Part shown: piece by piece, positions 3,055 through 59,739 of the stretch
Position numbering within the stretch: position 1 is the stretch's first letter
Layout: each line of letters opens with the position of its first letter
Virus record (IMG/VR): IMGVR_UViG_3300036801_000212
Coordinates: 1 to 64,000 of that record
From: a virus
Taxonomy: Duplodnaviria; Heunggongvirae; Uroviricota; Caudoviricetes
Strand: one strand, 5' to 3'
DNA: 64,000 nucleotides
The notes under the pieces: generated by a model
What the model saw: the letters and a program-made list of their open reading frames with translations, nothing else
Database searches by the model: none
Told to the model about the DNA's origin: nothing
Position numbers and translations under genes: made by a program

Positions 3055-4137
3055 GTGAGCACCTTTAAGGTCACGATCGAGAGACTAACTGTGACACCAC
3101 ATCCGAATGCGGATCGTCTAGAGCTAGCGCAGGTAGGTCTCTACCGCGCCGTGGTTCCCAAGGGGGAGTACGAAACCGGCGATTGCGCGATCTATATCCC
3201 CGAGGCGGCGATTCTCCCCGATGACTTGATCGAAGAACTCGGCCTCACAGGAAAGCTCGCCGGCAAGGAGAAGAACCGAGTCAAGGCGGTACGTCTTCGG
3301 GGCGAGCTGAGTCAGGGGATCGTGTGTCAGCCCGCGAAGTTCTCCGACTGGGAATACGACCTCATGGAGAGCAGCGGGATCGACTTCGCACCCGAGCTCG
3401 GCATCACAAAGTGGGTCCCCGAGATTCCCACTCACATGTCCGGGAAGGTCATCCCCGCTCCTGACCTCATCCGGTGGGTAGATATCGAGAACCTCAAAAG
3501 ATACCCAGACATTTTCTCCCCGGGGGAAATGATTACAGCGAGTGAGAAGGTGCACGATTCTGCCTGTCTAACGACGTACCACGTTGACTCAGATACGCTT
3601 TATGTCACGAGCAAAGGCTATGGCGAAAAGAACCTCGCATTAGAAGAAAACGGCGCAAACATCTACTGGCGTGCCGTGGAGAAATTCGAACTCAAGAAGA
3701 ACTTACAGCTGATGGCCGTCGGGTTGGACGCAGTCTCGGTGGCGATCTTCGGTGGGGTCTACGGTCAAGGTGTGCAAGACTTGCACTACGGAAAGTCGGC
3801 TCGTCACAACGACACATTAGGTTACGTAGCTTTCGACGTTGCCTGGGTGAGTCGGGTGACGGGAAAAACTTGGATGAACCCCACAGACTTCGCTCAGGTG
3901 ATGACAGGATTCCACATTCCCACCGCCCCGATTCTCTACGAAGGTCCGTTCGACCTCGAGAAGCTCACCAAGGTTGCTTCCGGACCGACCGTCCTAGGAA
4001 ATGGTGTACACATCAGGGAAGGAATTGTCATCCGTCCACAAGAGGAAAGTCACAGTGACATCCTCGGGGGAAGAAAGATCGCGAAACTCGTCTCCGATGA
4101 GTATGTGCTGCGCAAGGATGGAACGGAGTTTGAGTAA
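3055..4137 (+). CDS. RNA ligase with N-terminal OB/tRNA-binding-like domain and C-terminal nucleotidyltransferase domain (Rnl5/DraRnl-like architecture)
   Basis: N-terminus HPNADRLELAQVG...GDCAIYIPEAAILP resembles Trbp111/PheT-type OB tRNA-binding fold; C-terminal motifs EKVHDSA (motif I, Rnl2-like KIHGTN variant), EGIVIRP (motif IV), RKIAKLVS (motif V). Confidence 0.6.
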   Translation: MSTFKVTIERLTVTPHPNADRLELAQVGLYRAVVPKGEYETGDCAIYIPEAAILPDDLIEELGLTGKLAGKEKNRVKAVRLRGELSQGIVCQPAKFSDWEYDLMESSGIDFAPELGITKWVPEIPTHMSGKVIPAPDLIRWVDIENLKRYPDIFSPGEMITASEKVHDSACLTTYHVDSDTLYVTSKGYGEKNLALEENGANIYWRAVEKFELKKNLQLMAVGLDAVSVAIFGGVYGQGVQDLHYGKSARHNDTLGYVAFDVAWVSRVTGKTWMNPTDFAQVMTGFHIPTAPILYEGPFDLEKLTKVASGPTVLGNGVHIREGIVIRPQEESHSDILGGRKIAKLVSDEYVLRKDGTEFE

Positions 4138-13455: not shown

Positions 13456-14604
13456 GTGGCCGGTCGTATCTTAAGCATGCAGGCCCAGCTAAAAGAGCTG
13501 GGGCGACTACGCAGCGGTCTGTACGACGTCTCGGGGCGTAAGGGGCGCCCGGCGAGGTCGGAGACGTGGATTCTCACTTCCCATGCTCAACACTACGTCC
13601 AGGCCGCGGCTGATGCGTGGGGTGGGAGCGTAGAGAAGTGGCAGCCACAAGGTGGTGGCGCTGCGCAGTGGCGGGTTATAACTGAGCAGATCACACTGGA
13701 TGCGATTCTGCCGCCCGGCGACCCTCTCTCGCAAGCGCTCGAGCTTTGGTCCGGGGGGGGATGCAAACGGCGCTGCACGGGTGTGACGGAGATGCTGTCC
13801 GACTCGCCATGCATCTGCCAGTCGAAGTTCGGTGCTCAATTCCATGAGCAGCCGGCGGGGACTGTGTGCTCGGCCACGACACGTCTGAATGTTCTCCTGC
13901 CGGACATGCCAGACATTGGTCAGTGGATTCTCGTCACTCATTCGTGGTATGCCGCGATGGAGATCGCCGGGGCTGTAGACCTCATCAAGGCCGCGGTGGG
14001 ACATGAGGCGACGATCCCAATTCGTCTGAGAATTGAACAGCGGCAACGCAAGTCCGACGGTCAGACCAAAAAGTTCCAGGTGATCGTGGTTGAGTCGAGG
14101 GGTCTCAACACCGGTGATCTGCTGAATGGTTCCGTGGTCAAGGCGATTGAAGCTGCCGCCAAGCCGGCCATCACGGCTCCGGAACCCAAGGTCCAGATCG
14201 ACATCGACTCTCTTCATGACGCTCTCTTCGCGGTCGAATCTCTGGAGGATTGGTCGGAAGTCTGGCCGATGATCAAAGAAGCTGGGGACGCAGAACTCAC
14301 AGAGGAGGCCGAAACGATCGCCAAGGACTTTCTCGAGCGAACTACCTCAGTGGATGAGTTGAAGAGTCTCTGGAAGTTCGCGGTAACGCAGAAGTTGAAG
14401 GATGCCGCCACATCTCATGCCGGGACGTTGAAGGCTAAAAAGTCCGACGAGTCTCCGAATCAAGTGTGGTCGAAGATCATGGAGACAGTTCCGGAATCGT
14501 GGCCAACGTCGAAGGTGGAACAGGAGTTCGAAAGGTTCGCTAAGACGACAGTGCAGGAGGCCACCCGTCCGCAGATGGAGGCTTATCTGGAGACTCTCGC
14601 ATGA
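13456..14604 (+). CDS. hypothetical protein with 4-Cys cluster and acidic helical C-terminal half; possible recombination partner of the exonuclease
   Basis: GTG start immediately after exonuclease stop; CKRRC...CIC...C cluster; position suggests recombination function but no family assignable. Confidence 0.5.
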   Translation: MAGRILSMQAQLKELGRLRSGLYDVSGRKGRPARSETWILTSHAQHYVQAAADAWGGSVEKWQPQGGGAAQWRVITEQITLDAILPPGDPLSQALELWSGGGCKRRCTGVTEMLSDSPCICQSKFGAQFHEQPAGTVCSATTRLNVLLPDMPDIGQWILVTHSWYAAMEIAGAVDLIKAAVGHEATIPIRLRIEQRQRKSDGQTKKFQVIVVESRGLNTGDLLNGSVVKAIEAAAKPAITAPEPKVQIDIDSLHDALFAVESLEDWSEVWPMIKEAGDAELTEEAETIAKDFLERTTSVDELKSLWKFAVTQKLKDAATSHAGTLKAKKSDESPNQVWSKIMETVPESWPTSKVEQEFERFAKTTVQEATRPQMEAYLETLA

Positions 14605-38700: not shown

Positions 38701-38772
38701 AGAGCGGGATGGCGCAGTAGTAGCGCGTTGGGCTCATATCCCAAAGGTCGTGGGTGCGACTCCCACTCCCGC
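38701..38772 (+). tRNA. tRNA-Met (anticodon CAU; could alternatively be lysidine tRNA-Ile)
   Basis: Cloverleaf folded by hand: acceptor AGCGGGA/TCCCGCC (1:72 A-C mismatch), D-stem GCGC/GCGC, anticodon stem TTGGG/CCCAA loop CTCATAT, T-arm GTGGG-TGCGACT-CCCAC; no encoded CCA. Confidence 0.7.
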
Positions 38773-38824
38773 CACGTGTCACGCCCGGACAATGGGTTCC
38801 TCACGGTTCGCCCGTCCGGGTTAT

Positions 38825-40408: not shown

Positions 40409-41705
40409 CCCCCGGATTTATCCGTGGGGAGGAATCGGAGTGCCGTGCCTTACTCATGTCGTGCCCTCTGGTAAAGTGGATGTCGTGAGGACGGCGTACA
40501 AGGTTCGTGCCTACCCCGACACTGAGCAGGCGACGCTGCTGCGTCGCACCTTCGGGTGTGTGCGCCTGGTATGGAACAAGACCCTCGCCGATCGGCAATG
40601 CCGCTACACCGTCGAGCAGCGCAGCACTCCGTATAAGGAGACTGACGCCGCCCTCGCTGCGTGGAAACACACCGACGAGCTGGCGTTTCTGTCCGAGGTG
40701 TCCTCGGTTCCGTTGCAGCAGACGTTGCGGCATCAGCACACCGCGTTCCAAAACTTCTTCGCCAAACGAGGCCGCTACCCGAAGTTCAAGTCCCGCAACT
40801 CGCGCCAGTCCGCGCACTACACCCGGTCGGCGTTCCGCATCAAACCCGATGGATTGTGGCTGGCTAAAACCACTGCGCCGTTGAAAGTGGCGTGGTCGTG
40901 GCCCGACATTGACATGACCGGACTCGACCCGACGATGGTCATCGTCAGCGTCGAACCCGACGGCCGCTGGTACGTCACCTTCGCCGTGGACGTTTCCGCT
41001 CCGGCTCCGCTGCCCGCCGTCGGCGAGACGGTCGGAGTCGACGTCGGGTTGAAGGACTTCGCTGTCCTGTCCACCGGGGAGCGCATCGCCAACCCACGGC
41101 ATCTAGCCAAGCGCGCCCGGAACTTGGCCCGCTACCAGCGACGCATGACCCGCTGTAAGCGTGGCTCCGCGAACCGAGCCAAGGCCAAACTGAAGGTCGC
41201 TCGGGCACACTCGAAGGTCCGCGCTGCACGAAACGACTTCCTGCACAAGACCAGCACCACATTGGTCCGCCGGTTCGATCGGGTCGGCATCGAAGATCTG
41301 AACGTATCCGGCATGGTCCGCGATCACCCGCTCGCCAAGGCGATTTCCGACGTTGGGTGGGGCGAGTTCCGGTCCATGCTCGAATACAAGGCGCAACGCG
41401 CCGGACGTCAGATGATCGCCATCGACCGCTGGTACCCGTCGAGCAAGACATGCAGTTCGTGTGGCCACCTGCTGACCTTCCTTTCCCTTGGTACGCGTCA
41501 GTGGACGTGTCCCGGATGCGGCACCCGACATGATCGGGACTTGAACGCCGCGAAGAACATCGATACGGCGGCCGGGCTGGTCGCTGCTGCCTCCGGAGGG
41601 CCGGTGAGACCTGTGCAGGCAACTGCTGGGCACGGCCCAGCGAAAGAGGAACCCCGACTCGTGAGGGTTGGAATCCCCCGCCTTTAGGCGTGGGGAGGAA
41701 GTCAA
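40409..41705 (+). mobile_element. second IS200/IS605-family tnpB-only element, ~1.3 kb
   Basis: Left-end hairpin CCCCCGGATTTATCCGTGGGG identical to first element; right-end hairpin CCCCCGCCTTTAGGCGTGGGG followed by AGGAAGTCAA. Confidence 0.65.
40485..41687 (+). CDS. tnpB: TnpB (diverged paralog of 24783..25925)
   Basis: RTAYKVRAYPDTEQATLLRRTFGCVRLVWNKTL; RuvC-like motifs; CSSCG...CPGCG Zn finger; NAAKNI. Confidence 0.85.
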   Translation: MRTAYKVRAYPDTEQATLLRRTFGCVRLVWNKTLADRQCRYTVEQRSTPYKETDAALAAWKHTDELAFLSEVSSVPLQQTLRHQHTAFQNFFAKRGRYPKFKSRNSRQSAHYTRSAFRIKPDGLWLAKTTAPLKVAWSWPDIDMTGLDPTMVIVSVEPDGRWYVTFAVDVSAPAPLPAVGETVGVDVGLKDFAVLSTGERIANPRHLAKRARNLARYQRRMTRCKRGSANRAKAKLKVARAHSKVRAARNDFLHKTSTTLVRRFDRVGIEDLNVSGMVRDHPLAKAISDVGWGEFRSMLEYKAQRAGRQMIAIDRWYPSSKTCSSCGHLLTFLSLGTRQWTCPGCGTRHDRDLNAAKNIDTAAGLVAAASGGPVRPVQATAGHGPAKEEPRLVRVGIPRL

Positions 41706-53680: not shown

Positions 53681-54055
53681 ATGCATCTCCACCCCGCGAT
53701 ACATAAAGTCCATCTTCGTCGCACCGCTAGTATCCAGCTTCGTGTAGCAGATTTGATCACCCGCTTTGCCGGGTCGATGAATTTCGTTTACCTTCACCTC
53801 GTTGCCTTCACTCTGTGGATGCTGTTCGCAGAGACAACCCCGTGGCCAACCTTAACTTTGGTCGTCTCCCTCGAGGCTATCTTTCTGTCAACGTTCGTGA
53901 TGGTGGGACAGAATAGAGCTCAGGAGCTGCAGCAGGCGAAAGCGAACCACGATTTCGTCGAGCAAGAGGCTGAGTTGAAAACCAACACCCAGTTGACGAG
54001 GGAAATTCACGCGTTGACTACGGAACTGCATAGAAGGACGGCGAGCAGCAAATGA
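53681..54055 (+). CDS. DUF1003-like membrane protein
   Basis: MNFVYLHLVAFTLWM...PWP.LTLVVSLEAIFLSTFVMVGQNRAQ pattern. Confidence 0.5.
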   Translation: MHLHPAIHKVHLRRTASIQLRVADLITRFAGSMNFVYLHLVAFTLWMLFAETTPWPTLTLVVSLEAIFLSTFVMVGQNRAQELQQAKANHDFVEQEAELKTNTQLTREIHALTTELHRRTASSK

Positions 54056-54062
54056 ACAAGCA

Positions 54063-54275
54063 TTGGTGACGAAGATTTCTGTCACGATTTCAGATGAAGC
54101 TCTCGAGGACCTCCGAACTTTAGCCGCAGAGCAGAATTTAACTTTCCGCGCGGCGGTGGAGCAATCTATTCAAACGATGAAGTTCCTTCACGACGATATG
54201 AAGAATGGCAGCAATCTGGTGCTGGAGAAACCTAACGGTAAGTTAGCGCGGATCATTTGGTCGGTACCGTGCTAG
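54063..54275 (+). CDS. possible RHH-type small DNA-binding protein
   Basis: KISVTISDEALEDLRTLAAEQN resembles RHH N-terminus. Confidence 0.4.
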   Translation: MVTKISVTISDEALEDLRTLAAEQNLTFRAAVEQSIQTMKFLHDDMKNGSNLVLEKPNGKLARIIWSVPC

Positions 54276-54508
54276 AACTTTCTTCTCTAGACCGTTTTTC
54301 CATCTCCGGTAGAGGTGACGCTGTCGTTGTCGAACTTGACTCCGAGTGGGTCGATCATAACGACCCCAAGTTCCTCCGCGGAATGTCAGTGATGGTCGAC
54401 GGGGTGATTCACATCGTGGCCGGGGTTGAGACTTCGCTCCATCCGTGGCGTCCGGACGAAGGTCATATTCTCTCCCGCCGGCGAGTTTCGTTGCTTCTTA
54501 GCGATTAG
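54257..54508 (+). CDS. hypothetical protein
   Basis: ORF. Confidence 0.35.
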   Translation: MVGTVLELSSLDRFSISGRGDAVVVELDSEWVDHNDPKFLRGMSVMVDGVIHIVAGVETSLHPWRPDEGHILSRRRVSLLLSD

Positions 54509-54567
54509 GTCTTACCCACGGAGTCTACGCCGATTTTAGGGAAAATCATGAATGGTGGGCCAGTCTT

Positions 54568-54852
54568 GTGACCGACGAAGAGGGTATGGCTCCCGTCTAT
54601 TCAGTAGACAGACTATCTTCGACGAATGCCGTGGTTCCCCCGGAGAAGCTCGACCCGTCGGAGAGGGTGCGTATTGACGCTGCTGCATCCCGTGCGAGAA
54701 AAGTTTTCGGAGGTCCGGTGGGGGAATTTCTCGAAACCGAGTTGAGGTCGTGGGTCGTGCTATCCCTTCGTCTGGATCAACGAGGTCTCGTCTCCCGTAT
54801 GGTCAACGCCATCCTTGACATGCCAATTCCCGAAACGCCGAAAGTGGTTTGA
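54568..54852 (+). CDS. hypothetical protein
   Basis: ORF. Confidence 0.4.
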   Translation: MTDEEGMAPVYSVDRLSSTNAVVPPEKLDPSERVRIDAAASRARKVFGGPVGEFLETELRSWVVLSLRLDQRGLVSRMVNAILDMPIPETPKVV

Positions 54853-55289
54853 ATGCCGTTCTTCCGCAAAGAGACCTACGAGCAGGCATGACCGTGGACT
54901 GGTTGGATTACGAAGTTGTCCCGCTGACTCCCCACATCCGCTATGTCGCGAGAAAAATCGTATGTCTGTATTACGACCATTTCGCCGGAGGGAAACTTTA
55001 CCCGCAAACGGAAAGATTCTGGCTGCGCGACCGTGACTTAGATGAATGCGAGTTGGATACTTTCGACGACGAGGAACTTTCTTGCTTCGAAGCTATCCGA
55101 GACTTGTCTTTAAATGAGCGTGCCACTTCGATGGCTTTGGGTCACGGTTTTTGGCGGGGCGTGGCTCACGTTAATGACGTCCGTGTGGAACACATGCTCC
55201 ACTGGCGGGAAGAGTCGAAGAATCTCGGTGGTGCGTATCCGAGGTTCACTATCTGCCAGTTCGGGACTTTTGCTAGTGGGTCGTCATAG
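54849..55289 (+). CDS. hypothetical protein
   Basis: ATGA overlap. Confidence 0.45.
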   Translation: MNAVLPQRDLRAGMTVDWLDYEVVPLTPHIRYVARKIVCLYYDHFAGGKLYPQTERFWLRDRDLDECELDTFDDEELSCFEAIRDLSLNERATSMALGHGFWRGVAHVNDVRVEHMLHWREESKNLGGAYPRFTICQFGTFASGSS

Positions 55290-55390
55290 GCTGCAAATGT
55301 GAACATTGCCTGCTGCGTAAAGAAGTGTTGCGTCGGTTGAGGCGTGAACAGTCTTTGTTTCGTAAGTTGTGGAAGAAACGAAAGTGAGCT

Positions 55391-55909
55391 ATGGATTCCA
55401 GGCTTAAGATTGTCAACACTGAAGGTGTTGGCTTCAAAACCAAGATTTTCATCGACGGCGAAGATGTTTCTTCTTGTTTCAAAGAAGCCAAGATCGGTAT
55501 CGCCTACGATGGAGCGGTTGAGGTTGAGCTCTCCCCCGTCCTGGCTGAGATCGAGATTGACAACGTGATGCAGTTGAAGATGCCAGTGGACGGCACTCGT
55601 GAACTGTTGGTGAAGCACGGTTGGACTCCCCCGGTGGAACCTAAGGTGGTGAAGGCGGTCAGGACCACGTTCCCGTACGAGCCATTGGATTTCGGCTTGG
55701 TGGAGGATGGGGAGTCTGTCGGCGGCGTTGAGCTCCTGAGTAGGTTCTTCTCCCGCGTCCAGGAAGAGTGGGAACCGAACGATGCCGACACTCTGACCAT
55801 GAGTCGAGTTTACGACGATCTTGGCCGTTCGATCCCGGGGAAGCGTAAATACCTTCTCGAGGTCACGATGGATTCGGCGGAAGAGTTCGCTCGGTCGGAT
55901 TGTGAATGA
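55391..55909 (+). CDS. hypothetical protein
   Basis: ORF. Confidence 0.45.
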   Translation: MDSRLKIVNTEGVGFKTKIFIDGEDVSSCFKEAKIGIAYDGAVEVELSPVLAEIEIDNVMQLKMPVDGTRELLVKHGWTPPVEPKVVKAVRTTFPYEPLDFGLVEDGESVGGVELLSRFFSRVQEEWEPNDADTLTMSRVYDDLGRSIPGKRKYLLEVTMDSAEEFARSDCE

Positions 55910-56226
55910 AAACTTCCCTCACCGCAGAATACGATACGGAACTTTCTCGTATGGTTTTGTCGTTGATGGCGGATGACGCAATCGGTTTTAGAGTTTTCCT
56001 CGTCAAAGACGGTGGTCGTGAACTTGTCCGTGGATGTCCCGGATATTGGCCGGCGGAAAAGAATTCCGCCACCGTGGTTTACGACTATGAGGTTCACGGG
56101 AAAGTTACGTATTCCGCGTTTGGTTATTTCGGGGAGTCTCTGTCTCCCGGGCCGTGGTCACGGAATGTCACGGTGAACACTTCTTGGCCTGCGCATTGGC
56201 TGTTGAGGGACGAAGAGTTTGAATAG
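55906..56226 (+). CDS. hypothetical protein
   Basis: ATGA overlap. Confidence 0.45.
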   Translation: MKTSLTAEYDTELSRMVLSLMADDAIGFRVFLVKDGGRELVRGCPGYWPAEKNSATVVYDYEVHGKVTYSAFGYFGESLSPGPWSRNVTVNTSWPAHWLLRDEEFE

Positions 56227-56231
56227 TGCTT

Positions 56232-56283
56232 TGGTCGCCAGGCTCGGACTTGAACCGAGCATTACCAGACCCAACGTCTGGCG
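56232..56283 (-). ncRNA. tRNA 3-prime-half-like element (acceptor-like stem + T-arm + discriminator A + CCA); possible att-core remnant or minihelix RNA
   Basis: Minus strand reads CGCCAGA-n17-CTCGG TTCAAGT CCGAG-CCTGGCG-A-CCA; T-loop and 6/7-bp acceptor pairing but no anticodon or D arm. Confidence 0.45.
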
Positions 56284-56420
56284 GGCTTGAAGCCTCACAG
56301 AACTTGACGCTGCCCGGTGCACTCGGGTCTGCCGTTGCTGTCACGCTGGTCACCGTTTCCGGTGCCGCCTTTACCCCACTGGCGATGACTCCACCCTACC
56401 AGCAAAGTCAGGATGTTGGC

Positions 56421-56705
56421 ATGACTTTCGAGCGAGCGCAGTGGCAGTACGACAACATGCTCCCGCCGGAAATCTGGTACTGCGATTGTGGGATTCGTAT
56501 CGACGAGGATGAAACGATGTGCGCGGATTGTGCCCAGCTTCAGGCGCTCCTTGCGGACGCTCAAGAGCTCGCAGACCACGGAGACTGGTACGACGACACC
56601 GCTGACGAGATCGAGGAACGGACCTCGATCACACAGGCGCTGATGCCAGCACAGCTCGCCACCGAGCTCTGGCAAGATCATTATTCGCTCGGGCGCCCCA
56701 TGTAG
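56421..56705 (+). CDS. hypothetical acidic protein with Zn-ribbon (CDCG...CADC)
   Basis: Internal ATG of track ORF 56226..56705; upstream part of that ORF overlaps the tRNA-like element. Confidence 0.4.
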   Translation: MTFERAQWQYDNMLPPEIWYCDCGIRIDEDETMCADCAQLQALLADAQELADHGDWYDDTADEIEERTSITQALMPAQLATELWQDHYSLGRPM

Positions 56706-57330
56706 CCACTGCGTGGGCGCCCAAGACTCGAACCTGGGTGTATGCCATTCGCCCATCTAACTTCCCTCGCCTCGCCTAGCCACGCCTCGCACTGCCGCGC
56801 CATGCCTGGCCTAGCCTTGCTTATGCCGTGCGTGGGTGCCGCAGACTCGAACCGCGGTGTATGCCGTTCACCCGCCAAACTCCCTCGCCTTGCCGTGCCC
56901 AGCCATGCCCAGCCCAGCCTCGCCATGCCAAGCCGCGCCTGGCCTCGCCAAGCGTTGCCGTGCGTGAGCGTCGAGGACCCGAACCTCGATGTATGCCGTC
57001 CGCTCTCCATCTATCCCTAGCCCTGCCACGCCGTGCCGTGCCCAGCCCAGCCACGCCGTGCGTGGGCGTTCGGGACTCGAACCCGAATGTGTGCCACTCG
57101 CCCTCCAACTATCCCTAGCCTCGCCTTGCCACGCCCGGCCCCGCCATGCCGCGCCCAGCCGTGCCTCGCCTTGCGTGAGTGCCGACGGCTCGCACGTCGG
57201 TGCCTGCTGGCCACTCAGTACTCCCCCTGCCTCGCCTAGCCGTGCCCAGCCATGCCCGGCCTCGCCGTGCCGCGCCACGCCGTGCCTTGCATTGCCGAGC
57301 CTAGCACTGCCAATGCCGTGCCACGCCCAG
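56706..57330 (-). repeat. array of five degenerate ~100-130-bp tandem repeats, each containing a tRNA top-half-like minihelix (minus strand; cores at 56711-56756, 56828-56875, 56960-57008, 57058-57105, 57175-57218) separated by GC-rich pentamer-like spacers
   Basis: Each core: 7-nt acceptor-like strand, conserved 11-nt linker (RAYGGCAYACA), 6-bp stem with loop TTCGAGT (TTCGGGT/TGCGAGC variants), complementary 7-nt strand, tail GCAC; compensatory substitutions between copies; all six reading frames open only because of repeats. Confidence 0.7.
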
Positions 57331-57390
57331 TCCCACGGGTTCGGCGCCCATCGGGTGCGTCAGCGGCGGGACTGGGTAGGCTGACGGATG

Positions 57391-57417
57391 CCGGAGCCAG
57401 TCACGAGCTGGCTCCGG
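57391..57417 (-). terminator. perfect 10-bp stem-loop CCGGAGCCAG-tcacga-GCTGGCTCCGG directly downstream of minus-strand gene 57420..57620
   Basis: Seen directly; no U-tract (common for actinobacterial terminators). Confidence 0.35.
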
Positions 57418-57419
57418 CC

Positions 57420-57620
57420 CTACAGCCCGAAGTAGTGCTTGCCTTGGTGACTGTGCGCCCGGAGGCAGAACAAGTTCCCCGAGCTGCTCTCGGCCATGCA
57501 CAGTCTAACCATCTTGTTGTTGATCACTCCATAGGCCCGCTCTCCGTCCTCGAAGTGATCCACACCGATCGCGTGGAACTTCATACCTAACCGCTGGTTG
57601 TAGTCGGACGATTTACTCAT
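57420..57620 (-). CDS. hypothetical protein
   Basis: Minus-strand ATG preceded by AAGGAGAGAAA Shine-Dalgarno-like sequence. Confidence 0.5.
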   Translation of the reverse strand: MSKSSDYNQRLGMKFHAIGVDHFEDGERAYGVINNKMVRLCMAESSSGNLFCLRAHSHQGKHYFGL

Positions 57621-57652
57621 TTTCTCTCCTTGTTTTTTCTTGCGAGGTTGTC

Positions 57653-58171
57653 ATGGAATTTCAAGACCTGAACTCTCTCCCTCCTCTCCCGCCGAAACGT
57701 CGTAGACGAAGCAACAATCAACGAACCGGCATGAACGCGCTCGAAACGTGGCAACGAGACTACAAATGTGTCCAGATGCGTAAAGCCGGCCACGATTGGG
57801 AATCCATTTGTGCCACTTTGGGATACTACGATCATTCCCACGCTTCTCGTAGGCTGATGGGTTTCCTTAAAGAAACCGTCCGCGAAGATGTCGACGAGTT
57901 GCGTGAGTTGGAAATGCAACGCCTTGACGAGAAGATTCTCCAGCTGGAAGACATCATTCTCCAAGGTGGTAACGGCGCCGCGAGAGCGATTGAGATTTGG
58001 AACAAACTTTCCGAGCGGCGGTCTAAGCTGATGGGTCTGGATCGCCCGGAGAAGAAAGAAGTCACCGTTCTCACCGCGGACACGATGGATGCGGCTATCG
58101 CGAAACTCAACACTGAGATGGAAATGAAGGCCCGGGAGGCCGGAGTTAATCTGGCGGAGTTGACAGAGTAA
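57653..58171 (+). CDS. putative DNA-binding protein (N-terminal HTH then coiled coil); terminase small-subunit-like architecture
   Basis: WESICATLGYYDHSHASRRLMGFL HTH-like, basic N-terminus KRRRRS; divergent from 57620 gene. Confidence 0.45.
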   Translation: MEFQDLNSLPPLPPKRRRRSNNQRTGMNALETWQRDYKCVQMRKAGHDWESICATLGYYDHSHASRRLMGFLKETVREDVDELRELEMQRLDEKILQLEDIILQGGNGAARAIEIWNKLSERRSKLMGLDRPEKKEVTVLTADTMDAAIAKLNTEMEMKAREAGVNLAELTE

Positions 58172-58228
58172 GACTCGCTACCGAAGGAATAGGCGTAGAT
58201 ACGAGTCACTCCGTGTCTACGCTTATTC

Positions 58229-58516
58229 CTACCTTTGCTCCTTCGTCAACTGCGCATCGATCGAGGCAAGCTGGTCGAGAAGTCGCTGACGTTCCGCCAT
58301 TAGCACGGTTTCTTCGTTGAGCATGTCGGCGAGCGACTTGCCAAGGACGTGCGAGATCGCTACGGCCAAGTTGAGTCGGATAGATCGGTTCCCCTTCTCG
58401 ATCTTCGTGATGGCGGTCGGGTCTAGCCCTACTTTCTCTGCCAGCGTGGACTGACTGAGTCCCTGCTGCTCACGGCTTGCGCGCAGCACGGCGGCGAACA
58501 CCTGCTCTGGCTCCAT
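58229..58516 (-). CDS. XRE-family HTH regulator (Cro/CI-like)
   Basis: LSQSTLAEKVGLDPTAITKIEKGNRSIRLNLAVAISHVL. Confidence 0.6.
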   Translation of the reverse strand: MEPEQVFAAVLRASREQQGLSQSTLAEKVGLDPTAITKIEKGNRSIRLNLAVAISHVLGKSLADMLNEETVLMAERQRLLDQLASIDAQLTKEQR

Positions 58517-58577
58517 CTACGCTCTCCAGGCTTGATAAATCGTGGCACGGTCCCTTCAGCGGCCGAGCATGGGCCGT

Positions 58578-58769
58578 TTAATCTTCGGGTCGATGGCTGC
58601 GCGGCATTCCATCCAATATATTCAGTATGGTGGTAATTGTCTCGCCTTGAGTGCGTTGGGTAGCTTCTAGGTGTTCGATCCGCTCCCGTAGTTCAGCGAC
58701 GATTGTGGCGTGGCGACCATCGCGAATTAATTTAACCGCTTTCCACGCGCTCATCAACGTTAGCTCCAA
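58578..58769 (-). CDS. small hypothetical protein
   Basis: Minus-strand ORF between regulator and recombinase. Confidence 0.4.
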   Translation of the reverse strand: MELTLMSAWKAVKLIRDGRHATIVAELRERIEHLEATQRTQGETITTILNILDGMPRSHRPED

Positions 58770-58797
58770 TATGTCGGGTCGGGTAGGGTGTGTCTGG

Positions 58798-59358
58798 TCA
58801 CTGCTGCTTCTGTAGCGCTCGGTAGATGGTAGCGCGGCTCACCTCCAAGGCTCCGGCGATCTCCTCGACCTGGTAGTCGTCACTGGCCATCATCGCACGT
58901 GCCAGCCTCACCTGATCTGGAGACAGCTTGGCCTTCCGACCGAGTTGCTTCCCGCTCCTCCTGGCCGTCCTTAAACCTTCATGGGTGCGCTCGACAATTA
59001 ACTCTCTCTCGAACTCCGCGAGAGCGCCTAGGATGGTGTAAAACATCCTCCCAATAGCAGTGTTGGTGTCAATCCCCTGATCCAAGATTCTTAAAGCTAT
59101 CCCACGCTCGGATAAATCCGCCGACAATTCCAGAAGATGCTTCACTGACCTCCCGGCTCTATCGAGTTTGGTCACAACCAAAGTGTCGCCTTGACGCAGA
59201 TATCCTAGACACGCGTCCCACTCTGGCCTTGACGCCAGCTTCCCCGATACTGCTTCGTCGGTGAAAACTTTTTCGCAGCCACACTCTTTCAAACGTGACA
59301 CCTGGTCTAGGACGTTCTGTTTGTCGGTTGAGCATCTTCCGTAGCCTATGAGTGCCAT
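58798..59358 (-). CDS. small serine recombinase (resolvase/invertase family)
   Basis: N-terminal MALIGYGRCSTDKQ (catalytic Ser), resolvase core, C-terminal HTH VEEIAGALEVSRATIYRAL. Confidence 0.8.
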   Translation of the reverse strand: MALIGYGRCSTDKQNVLDQVSRLKECGCEKVFTDEAVSGKLASRPEWDACLGYLRQGDTLVVTKLDRAGRSVKHLLELSADLSERGIALRILDQGIDTNTAIGRMFYTILGALAEFERELIVERTHEGLRTARRSGKQLGRKAKLSPDQVRLARAMMASDDYQVEEIAGALEVSRATIYRALQKQQ

Positions 59359-59361
59359 GGT

Positions 59362-59739
59362 TTACCCTCGATGATGTCGATGGTGATGTTTGTGGTGTTT
59401 GCGATGGTGATGTCTAACGTGGTGATGGTGCGTCTTATGTCCTTGAGCATGGCTGGTATGAGCAGAAACGTCGTGAAGTCGCCGCGAATGTAGAGAAACT
59501 CGAACGGCTCGCGCATGCCGCCGAATGCTGGTGTACACCGATCGCTTGCCTGACCGACGATGATCGAGCTTAGCTGGAATCCCATGGGCGGAGACCGGCA
59601 GCGTGTGAGCGGTTGGTGAATTTGTAGGTTGGATATCGTGTTGGGTAGTGGTTCCACTCGTTAAGAGGAGGAACACACCGACCAACATAGTTCCTACCGC
59701 TATAGCTAGTTTGTTTCTGGGTTGACTGTGCCGGCCCAT
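59362..59739 (-). CDS. secreted/membrane-anchored His-rich protein (third His-rich protein in window)
   Basis: N-terminal hydrophobic helix LAIAVGTMLVGVFLLLTSG; C-terminal HKTHHHHVRHHHRKHHKHHHRHH. Confidence 0.5.
   Translation of the reverse strand: MGRHSQPRNKLAIAVGTMLVGVFLLLTSGTTTQHDIQPTNSPTAHTLPVSAHGIPAKLDHRRSGKRSVYTSIRRHARAVRVSLHSRRLHDVSAHTSHAQGHKTHHHHVRHHHRKHHKHHHRHHRG

Follow-up and report, generated by a model that had tools for sequence, protein, structure and literature searches.

What kind of RNA is specified by five short, similar repeats that stand in tandem on the minus strand of a caudoviricete genome fragment, and what might such an RNA do in a phage? The repeats lie in a stretch of 64,000 nucleotides (nt) of IMG/VR record IMGVR_UViG_3300036801_000212 (positions 1 to 64,000), which is referred to as the window and in whose numbering all array coordinates and strands are given. 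A preliminary description, made from the letters of this stretch, had likened the repeats to the top half of a transfer RNA (tRNA), i.e. an acceptor-like stem plus a T-arm, and this likeness is supported by the comparative data presented here. With a probability of about 0.5, we read the units as punctuation marks of the RNase P/RNase Z type within a non-coding minus-strand RNA array of two separable modules.

The array extends over 56711-57327 on the minus strand (~620 nt) and comprises five modules, each of which consists of a run of GGCNN pentamers, an end motif and a 46-nt unit. The features of the region are given below in the order of the minus strand; bit scores refer to R1, a covariance model built from 113 sequences, in which the four strong window units were included and unit 1 was not.

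57390-57419, minus strand: hairpin of about 12 base pairs (bp) found by folding, 1 base past the stop codon of a leftward open reading frame (ORF) of 66 amino acids (57420-57620)
57326-57376, minus strand: second hairpin found by folding, with an 11-bp stem (CCCAGUCCCGC / GUGGGACUGGG), directly 5' of pentamer track 1
57227-57286, minus strand: pentamer track 1, 12 phased GGCNN units with a looser GGC period up to 57327, ending in GGCAGGGGGAG
57173-57218, minus strand: tRNA-like unit 1 (variant), 23.6 bits, expectation value (E) 3e-5, with linker GCCAGCAGGCA and loop UGCGAGC
57116-57170, minus strand: pentamer track 2, 11 GGCNN units, followed by the end motif AGGGAUAG at 57106-57115
57060-57105, minus strand: tRNA-like unit 2, 66.4 bits
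57018-57057, minus strand: pentamer track 3, 8 GGCNN units, followed by the end motif AGGGAUAG at 57008-57017
56962-57007, minus strand: tRNA-like unit 3 with loop UUCGGGU, 60.4 bits
56885-56949, minus strand: pentamer track 4, 13 GGCNN units, followed by GAGGGAG at 56876-56884
56830-56875, minus strand: tRNA-like unit 4 with a G-U pair in the 6-bp stem, 62.2 bits
56767-56816, minus strand: pentamer track 5, 5+4 GGCNN units, followed by GAGGGAAGUUAG at 56757-56766
56711-56756, minus strand: tRNA-like unit 5 with a G-U pair in the 6-bp stem, 64.2 bits

Each unit is built, in this order, from a 5-nt strand, an 11-nt linker, a 6-bp stem with a 7-nt loop, the complementary 5-nt strand and A-C, and the heptaloops of the window units read UUCGAGU, UUCGGGU or UGCGAGC. 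The proposed two-helix structure was the minimum-energy fold of all five units. R1, run with filters off, returned four units at 60-66 bits and the fifth at 23.6 bits and found no further match in the 64 kilobases (kb), which together with the folds bears out the claim of five minus-strand tandem units sharing one structure. For comparison, the pattern GGCAYACA-N6-TTCGRGTC occurred four times in the window, with 0.17 occurrences expected. The window units are 81% identical on average and their differences are compensatory: from these units alone, 9 of the 16 tested pairs were changed on both sides, whereas the signal collapsed for slid controls, and the between-copy compensation noticed earlier was thereby confirmed. 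Furthermore, the 6-bp stem and three linker contacts were paired in 100% of the window units, and G-U pairs were found at a single position of the 6-bp stem in two units and only in the minus-strand orientation, again as first described.

Other details of the earlier picture had to be revised. From the proposed 7-bp acceptor 5 bp are consistently paired, but the two extra pairs hold in just three and two of the five units, respectively, and the supposed GCAC tail is replaced by a family-wide 3' tail of the form R-C. The conserved 11-nt linker is present; however, it is not passive but D-loop-like, with covarying contacts to the T-loop. In terms of geometry only, the acceptor and T helices of the window units stack to 11 bp and a single-stranded 3' tail is present. 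The view that these are not ordinary tRNA genes was upheld: ARAGORN called only tRNA-Met and tRNA-Pro in the window (38.7-38.9 kb) and none of the 46-nt units, the Rfam tRNA model gave no match at E ≤ 10 in 54000-59500, and a cloverleaf is precluded since just 11 nt separate the acceptor strand from the T stem.

Searching other genomes with the sequence pattern and the covariance model unveiled a widespread phage family rather than a local oddity. In IMG/VR the pattern given above was present at at least 119 loci, and 134 of 161 pattern matches showed perfect 6+5 pairing before any filtering. For 113 distinct copies 99.3% of the cells were paired, 11 of 12 pairs were changed on both sides, and the covariation score amounted to 0.886, while shuffles reached 0.22 and slid structures no more than 0.19. 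The R1 search yielded 166 copies in 32 loci, with up to 12 per locus and nearly always on one strand, and a relaxed scan, in which the helices and a few bases were fixed, collected 189 distinct copies from viral contigs and cultured actinophages. The resulting consensus combines a 5-bp outer stem, the linker N-R-N-GGCA-Y/G-N-CA, a 6-bp stem with a UUCGAGU-type heptaloop and the R-C tail. Carriers include R4-like/Camvirus phages of Streptomyces (locus L054 is Endor2, with 100% identity), the mycobacteriophages Konstantine and Predator (cluster H) and LittleE (cluster J), and Microbacterium phage Wolfstar, while low-GC copies were found in IMG/VR viral contigs, including human-microbiome samples, and in Bacteroidota genome assemblies. 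Among 120 pattern matches listed for bacterial genomes (596 gigabases) about 18 are real and the rest arose by chance; consequently, the element is considered virus-enriched.

A second subfamily carries the linker AAUGGUUGCA or GAUGGUCGCA and the loop UUCGAYU; it was observed in LittleE (L241), Gordonia phage MakoManhole, a Gordonia metagenome-assembled genome (L223) and locus L244. Its stems measure 6+6, 5+7 or 7+5 bp, always 12 bp in total, and in the family as a whole the stack stays at 11-12 bp whichever way it is divided between the two stems (5+6, 6+6, 5+7, 7+5). In tRNA the acceptor/T stack is 7+5 = 12 bp. Comparison with Rfam 15 (E ≤ 10 for the region, E ≤ 1 for five related loci) gave noise and one sub-threshold match, of a single family member to the mascRNA model (26 bits), and no matching family. 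The literature search, whose subjects did not include the name 'Vipr', returned no description of the tRNA-like element, nor is it mentioned in papers on Endor1/2, cluster J and Tweety, in the 224-motif survey or in the paper on 10,006 viral structured RNAs. The element thus appears to be an undescribed, widespread phage RNA family.

Existing annotation of these genomes probably contains errors at the element. The Sitrop 'tRNA-Arg' (L120 1863-1945) and an ARAGORN 'tRNA-Ala' (L002 6613-6706) overlap tRNA-like units, and LittleE gene 35 (L241 2744-3133) is called opposite a pentamer/tRNA-like array strand. In R4-like Streptomyces phages (L018, L037, L048, L106, L109-L113) some units are preceded by the promoter-like sequence TTGACW-N17-TAGGGT, whose -10 box overlaps the first stem of the unit, and a repeated GTGTGACAGTGTGAG motif lies nearby.

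The linker contacts were counted in the 189 distinct copies, for which the relaxed scan had left these positions free except for linker G5/loop C3. Linker 2 was combined with linker 8 as A-U in 69, C-G in 67 and G-C in 47 copies, linker 9 with loop 7 as A-U in 150, G-C in 27, C-G in 8 and U-A in 2 copies, and linker 4 with loop 2 as G..U in 178 and A..G in 10 copies. The combination linker G5-loop C3 was invariant, yet it was required by the scan and is not independent evidence. In all five window units linker 2:8 and linker 9:loop 7 are standard pairs, each with changes on both sides. The elbow of tRNA is held by the contacts G18-psi55 and G19-C56, and in our own mapping linker 4/5 and loop 2/3 are predicted to correspond to them. 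The units are accordingly elbow-containing top halves of tRNA, in which the linker mimics the D-loop. Unit 1 combines C-G at linker 2-8, G-C at linker 9-loop 7 and A..G at linker 4 and loop 2; since it obeys all three variant rules of the family, this unit (AGCAGGCA / UGCGAGC) is regarded as a working variant and not as a decayed copy. The tRNA-Met of the window (38703-38775) is initiator-like with an A1-C72 mismatch; its D-loop AGUAGUA lacks GG and its T-loop reads UGCGACU, which results in A..G at 18/55 as in the minor unit variant.

Where the family members are located with respect to genes was analyzed for 226 copies with an upstream ORF. In 93 of them 6-8 nt lie between the end of the upstream stop codon and the stem, and almost none showed a distance below 6 nt; this spacing is alike in high-GC and low-GC phages. 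From the known footprint of the ribosome we infer that the structure is packed as near to the stop codon as a terminating ribosome permits. The 3' tail carries R in 97% and C in 95% of the copies, the next position nearly excludes C, and a ribosome-binding site with a start codon follows 20-50 nt past the unit, often after a small hairpin. In other phages copies follow nearly every small gene, on the gene strand and in gaps of 70-100 nt; in the Streptomyces phage Sitrop, they fill such gaps among small same-strand genes and are unannotated save for the one mis-called tRNA-Arg. In the window, L002, L038, L040, L068, L118, L223, LittleE and MakoManhole the unit separates pentamer tracks, not genes. 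The common denominator of all these contexts is the boundary between RNA segments, be they cistrons or tracks, on the transcribed strand.

The GC-rich, pentamer-like spacers of the preliminary description are real and turned out to be strictly 5-nt-phased GGCNN runs of 12, 11, 8, 13 and 5+4 units, with about 1.7 short runs expected per shuffled window; the stretches between the units that they fill span 52-127 nt. To call them mere spacers does not do them justice, because they form a module of their own which elsewhere is linked to a Cas7-fold protein named 'Vipr'. By BLAST of the flanking ORFs a conserved gene pair was found beside arrays, consisting of X (~190 amino acids, phrog_4652) and Y (~180 amino acids, phrog_5926). 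This pair adjoins arrays in L223, L031, L040, L104, L118, L002 and L038, corresponds to gp34/gp33 of LittleE, and is represented in Quico by X alone (gp57). Same-strand tracks with a 5-nt period flank X in L223, L031, L040, L104, L118, L002, LittleE, Quico, MakoManhole, SUSP1, Medea1 and a Vibrio phage. These tracks differ in kind: Quico has a 250-nt GGCNN run and no tRNA-like unit, MakoManhole has GGCNN tracks together with three tRNA-like units, phiSUSP1 has (GGTNN)11-14 with a hairpin of its own and no R1 match, and the tracks of Pseudomonas phage Medea1 and the Vibrio phage consist of degenerate GGY and (NGCAN)n, respectively. Conversely, the R4-like Streptomyces phages carry units in the absence of X, and no pentamer tracks were seen in the stretches inspected. 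Units thus occur without X or tracks, and tracks without units, which makes the two modules separable.

X has 872 relatives, all labelled 'hypothetical', and is present in 130 cultured phage records. It is 47% identical to chain D of PDB entry 36pp, deposited as 'SUSP1 Vipr protein', which is gp039 of E. coli phage phiSUSP1 and occurs in six copies in that entry. The AlphaFold model of X (predicted local distance difference test score 90) matched Csm3/Cas7 backbone subunits of type III and type VII effectors with a Foldseek probability of 1.0, an E of ~2e-5 and a template modelling score of ~0.5, and X is accordingly modelled as a protein with the RNA-binding Cas7 fold. No PADLOC model matches X or Y. 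Y is annotated as 'DNA binding protein' in MakoManhole and gave a weak winged-helix match. The X-Y cassette with its arrays is often reversed or inserted within head/tail gene modules (L244-L248, L241, L251), which suggests a moron-like, mobile cassette.

By analogy, the tracks tie the present locus to the Cas7-fold 'Vipr' system, which has already been solved structurally by at least one group (PDB 36pp). The SUSP1 locus has several same-strand modules of 11-14 five-nt repeats in non-coding gaps beside the gene, and a GGGUAG-like motif closes the tracks there and precedes a structured element, just as window tracks end in AGGGAUAG. Judging from the relatives of PDB 36pp, a Vipr-type locus carries tracks of ~8-15 units in several modules, as does the window. 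In contrast to SUSP1, the window has neither the Cas7-fold protein nor the partner gene, its repeat is GGC instead of GGT, and the place of an unrelated hairpin (no R1 match) is taken by the tRNA-like unit.

Some further observations concern the array itself. An RGGGAUAG-like motif closes every pentamer track (57106-57115, 57008-57017, 56757-56766 and relatives), UAG stands 2-5 nt ahead of the unit even where there is no upstream gene, and a GGGUAG-like track ending also occurs in the E. coli phage SUSP1. This motif may serve the track RNA as a 3' handle or, as a stop codon, guard the unit from ribosomes. Upstream of the array the region of the two hairpins (57326-57419) has a folding-energy z-score of -3.3, and the hairpin at 57390-57419 is terminator-like or stabiliser-like, without a U tail. 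A coding reading of the array was rejected: its ORFs overlap in different frames on both strands, and the stems covary regardless of codons. With respect to these overlapping frames the array was treated as non-coding. Megablast of the region against 50,697 phage records gave no match, and the gene neighbouring the array has no relatives in IMG/VR. The tracks were also considered as sites for shredding by RNase E. The mycobacterial enzyme cuts 5' of C and has a preference for C-rich regions (PMC10641625), whereas the transcribed strand is G-rich here, and this idea was left as weak.

Taken as punctuation, the array would work as follows. In each unit a 5-bp acceptor-like stem would be stacked on the 6-bp T-stem, with the 11-nt linker folding back to rebuild the tRNA elbow. 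Host RNase P would cut on the 5' side of the unit and RNase Z, or trimming, at the conserved R-C 3' tail, so that the precursor would be converted into five pentamer-track RNAs (~50-125 nt) and five mini-tRNAs; in other phages the same elements would separate cistrons. The single-stranded (GGCNN)n tracks are the proposed RNA ligand of a Cas7-like filament with 5 nt per subunit, and in the present case the Cas7-fold protein would come from outside the window, from another element, or not at all. Cleavage by RNase P and RNase Z is proposed because the unit lies at boundaries between RNA segments and combines an elbow, an 11-12-bp stack and a single-stranded tail, which are the properties gauged by enzymes of tRNA maturation. 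From the roles listed in the preliminary description, processed RNAs or transcript punctuation by RNase P/tRNase Z is the one that the comparative data favour, although the cleavage step itself is something we infer. Tentatively, one may go further and suppose that a new class of minimal tRNA mimic, made of elbow and acceptor stack and devoid of D stem and anticodon arm, serves phages of at least two bacterial phyla to recruit host tRNA-maturation enzymes for the cutting of their transcripts, in operons as well as in Vipr-type arrays, and the released mini-tRNAs might additionally be decoys for tRNA-directed defences.

Several results weigh against punctuation by tRNA-processing enzymes. The folding energies of the units are unexceptional for GC-rich RNA (z-scores of -0.1 to -1.2), and support for the fold consequently stems from covariation and not from thermodynamics. 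In the commonest subfamily the stack comprises 11 bp instead of 12. Directly 5' of the stem A predominates, whereas bacterial RNase P favours U at position -1; likewise, if the discriminator-like R corresponds to position 73, RNase Z would be disfavoured by the conserved C that comes next. In the window the array forms a 3' trailer opposite a convergent gene, and neither a leader nor a spacer between genes. Finally, neither X nor Y was found in the window below E = 1 (tblastn and profile hidden Markov models, six frames of 64 kb), and the gene for X could lie outside it.

How closely do known RNAs resemble the units? The 11-12-bp stack, the T-loop and G18/G19-like contacts are shared with tRNA, mascRNA/menRNA (RF01684), the t-elements of plant mitochondria and the mitochondrial tRNA punctuation signals, which are likewise found where one RNA segment of a polycistronic transcript meets the next. 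The phage units differ from these in that they have no D stem, anticodon arm or encoded CCA, measure 46 nt in total, contain a Watson-Crick pair between linker and loop 7, belong to phages of Actinomycetota and Bacteroidota, reach none of the Rfam thresholds and yield no ARAGORN call. The tRNA-like domain of transfer-messenger RNA likewise has a T-arm and an acceptor stem, and its D-loop analogue, which has no stem, touches the T-loop; however, the units lack its mRNA-like domain, pseudoknots and G3:U70 as well as an encoded CCA, and yielded neither a call for this RNA nor an Rfam match. Clustered regularly interspaced short palindromic repeats (CRISPR) with Cas7 backbones share the alternation of structured repeats with intervening segments, and relatives of the present locus encode a Cas7/Csm3-fold protein. 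The verdict that the array is not CRISPR-like was nevertheless retained: the repeats vary in sequence with compensation while keeping their structure, the spacers are low-complexity GGCNN pentamer tracks instead of captured sequences, the period is 5 nt as opposed to 6 nt, and no Cas6, Cas1, Cas2 or Cas10 genes were seen. In type III toxin-antitoxin systems the ToxI RNA, and pseudo-ToxI of phages, also forms tandem short structured RNAs, and the relatives' array lies upstream of a gene for an RNA-binding protein. Here, in contrast, long tracks part the units, X has the Cas7 fold and not the ToxN fold, and no ToxN-like gene, Rfam ToxI match or PADLOC match was obtained.

The regularity of the array can also be explained if the mini-tRNA is the product itself and acts in trans as a decoy or sponge for a host factor that reads the elbow or the acceptor end; candidate targets are acceptor-stem nucleases or nucleotidyltransferases of defence systems, RNase P and the CCA-adding enzyme. 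Intergenic placement would then be a cheap way to express many copies, which is compatible with processing. Five tandem copies here and up to 12 per genome, arrays without intervening genes, elbow contacts and an R-C tail kept well past the needs of a cleavage mark, and the weak resemblance of one copy to mascRNA all suit such a decoy. We consider it rather unlikely, as conserved identity elements such as G3:U70 or an encoded CCA were not seen, no partner protein co-occurs with the element across lineages, and the tight placement between stop codon and ribosome-binding site fits a role in cis better. A role in cis need not involve cleavage: the units could be structural insulators, either 3' protectors that block exonucleases or terminators and pause sites without a U tail, which stabilise the upstream cistron or track and block read-through of convergent genes. 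The window array indeed ends a leftward operon behind two strong hairpins and faces a convergent gene (unit 5 abuts the 3' end, 56705, of the plus-strand ORF), and Streptomyces phages often carry a second small hairpin after the unit. For this purpose a plain GC hairpin would suffice, though, leaving the T-loop, the D-loop-like linker and the covarying contacts unexplained, and termination past nearly every small gene would need a promoter before each; insulators are therefore judged improbable. An element acting as DNA, for instance as binding site of a protein such as Y, as a signal for replication, recombination or packaging, or as a selfish satellite repeat, could draw on the annotation and winged-helix match of Y and on the possibility that a small-terminase-like ORF (57653-58171) marks a nearby genome end. 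Such an element would explain neither its co-orientation with genes across loci, nor G-U tolerance on one strand only, the fixed distance from stop codons, the tRNA-like tertiary covariation and the RNA-binding Cas7 fold of the associated X, and it is very improbable.

Least probable is an origin of the units by decay of tRNA genes, or as relics of integration at the 3' ends of tRNAs, for which a further element of the window would provide the attP core:

56232-56283, minus strand: orphan element resembling the 3' part of a tRNA, with an anticodon-arm-like hairpin, the T-arm CUCGG UUCAAGU CCGAG and CCUGGCG-A-CCA

This CCA-ended element of 52 nt with its TTCAAGT T-loop exists as described, albeit not upstream of the array but ~430 nt downstream (3') of it, as read on the minus strand. 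Its tRNA proportions, from position 27 to CCA, and the number of T-arm-like hairpins in the window (5 versus 0.3 expected) are in favour of such relics. However, decay produces neither compensatory changes nor an 11-nt linker conserved across ~190 copies of several phyla, repeated integration does not account for the 5' complementary strand and the covariation, and no tyrosine integrase adjoins the element, so that this explanation of the array is largely refuted. As to the 52-nt element as an att core, an exact 22-mer match was found neither in 185,579 species genomes nor in IMG/VR, a test that covers exact identity in sampled hosts, a search with a linker-plus-loop pattern likewise returned nothing, and no integrase adjoins it; the idea is thus left unsupported. 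The element was called neither by ARAGORN nor by the Rfam tRNA model. Its closing into a minihelix was rejected, because the minimum-energy fold consists of two separate hairpins, and it is kept as a candidate member of the array.

The neighbours of the array encode a helix-turn-helix regulator, a resolvase, endonuclease VII and a RuvB-like protein. An RNA-repair cassette was confirmed by Pfam, comprising an Rnl1-like ligase (944-2044), PNKP (1933-2967) and a second RNA ligase with an OB-fold (3055-4137). The cassette on which the suggested theme of tRNA-centred conflict was based is thus real, but it lies 52 kb from the array and no link between the two was found; in most element-bearing phages no RNA-repair genes were detected. 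Beside the array the ORF 57653-58171 matches phrog_645, labelled 'Rnase E' (E 3e-23); its helix-turn-helix region and coiled coil make it putatively small-terminase-like instead, in which case a genome end or packaging site may be near. Just downstream of the two tRNA genes lies a gene of the TnpB/IS605 OrfB type (40440-41687; OrfB_IS605, Cas12f1-like TNB and helix-turn-helix domains). A Gp3-like recombination directionality factor (13456-14604) and a small serine resolvase/invertase (58798-59358) were also noted, and no large serine or tyrosine integrase was found among the window ORFs scanned.

Stretches of ~0.5 kb now labelled 'hypothetical protein', such as LittleE gene 35, or mis-called as tRNA could be re-labelled. 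The element is, moreover, a natural experiment that bears on how little suffices to rebuild a tRNA elbow and, being small, modular and tolerant of stem changes, it could be of use in high-GC hosts, as an insulator or for processing, in synthetic operons and arrays of guide RNAs. Should RNase P and RNase Z cut the units, many well-studied cultured phages, among them the R4-like Streptomyces phages and the mycobacteriophages of clusters H and J, would use a tRNA-punctuation logic so far tied to organelles, and this logic would also mature a non-coding RNA that feeds a Cas7-like protein.

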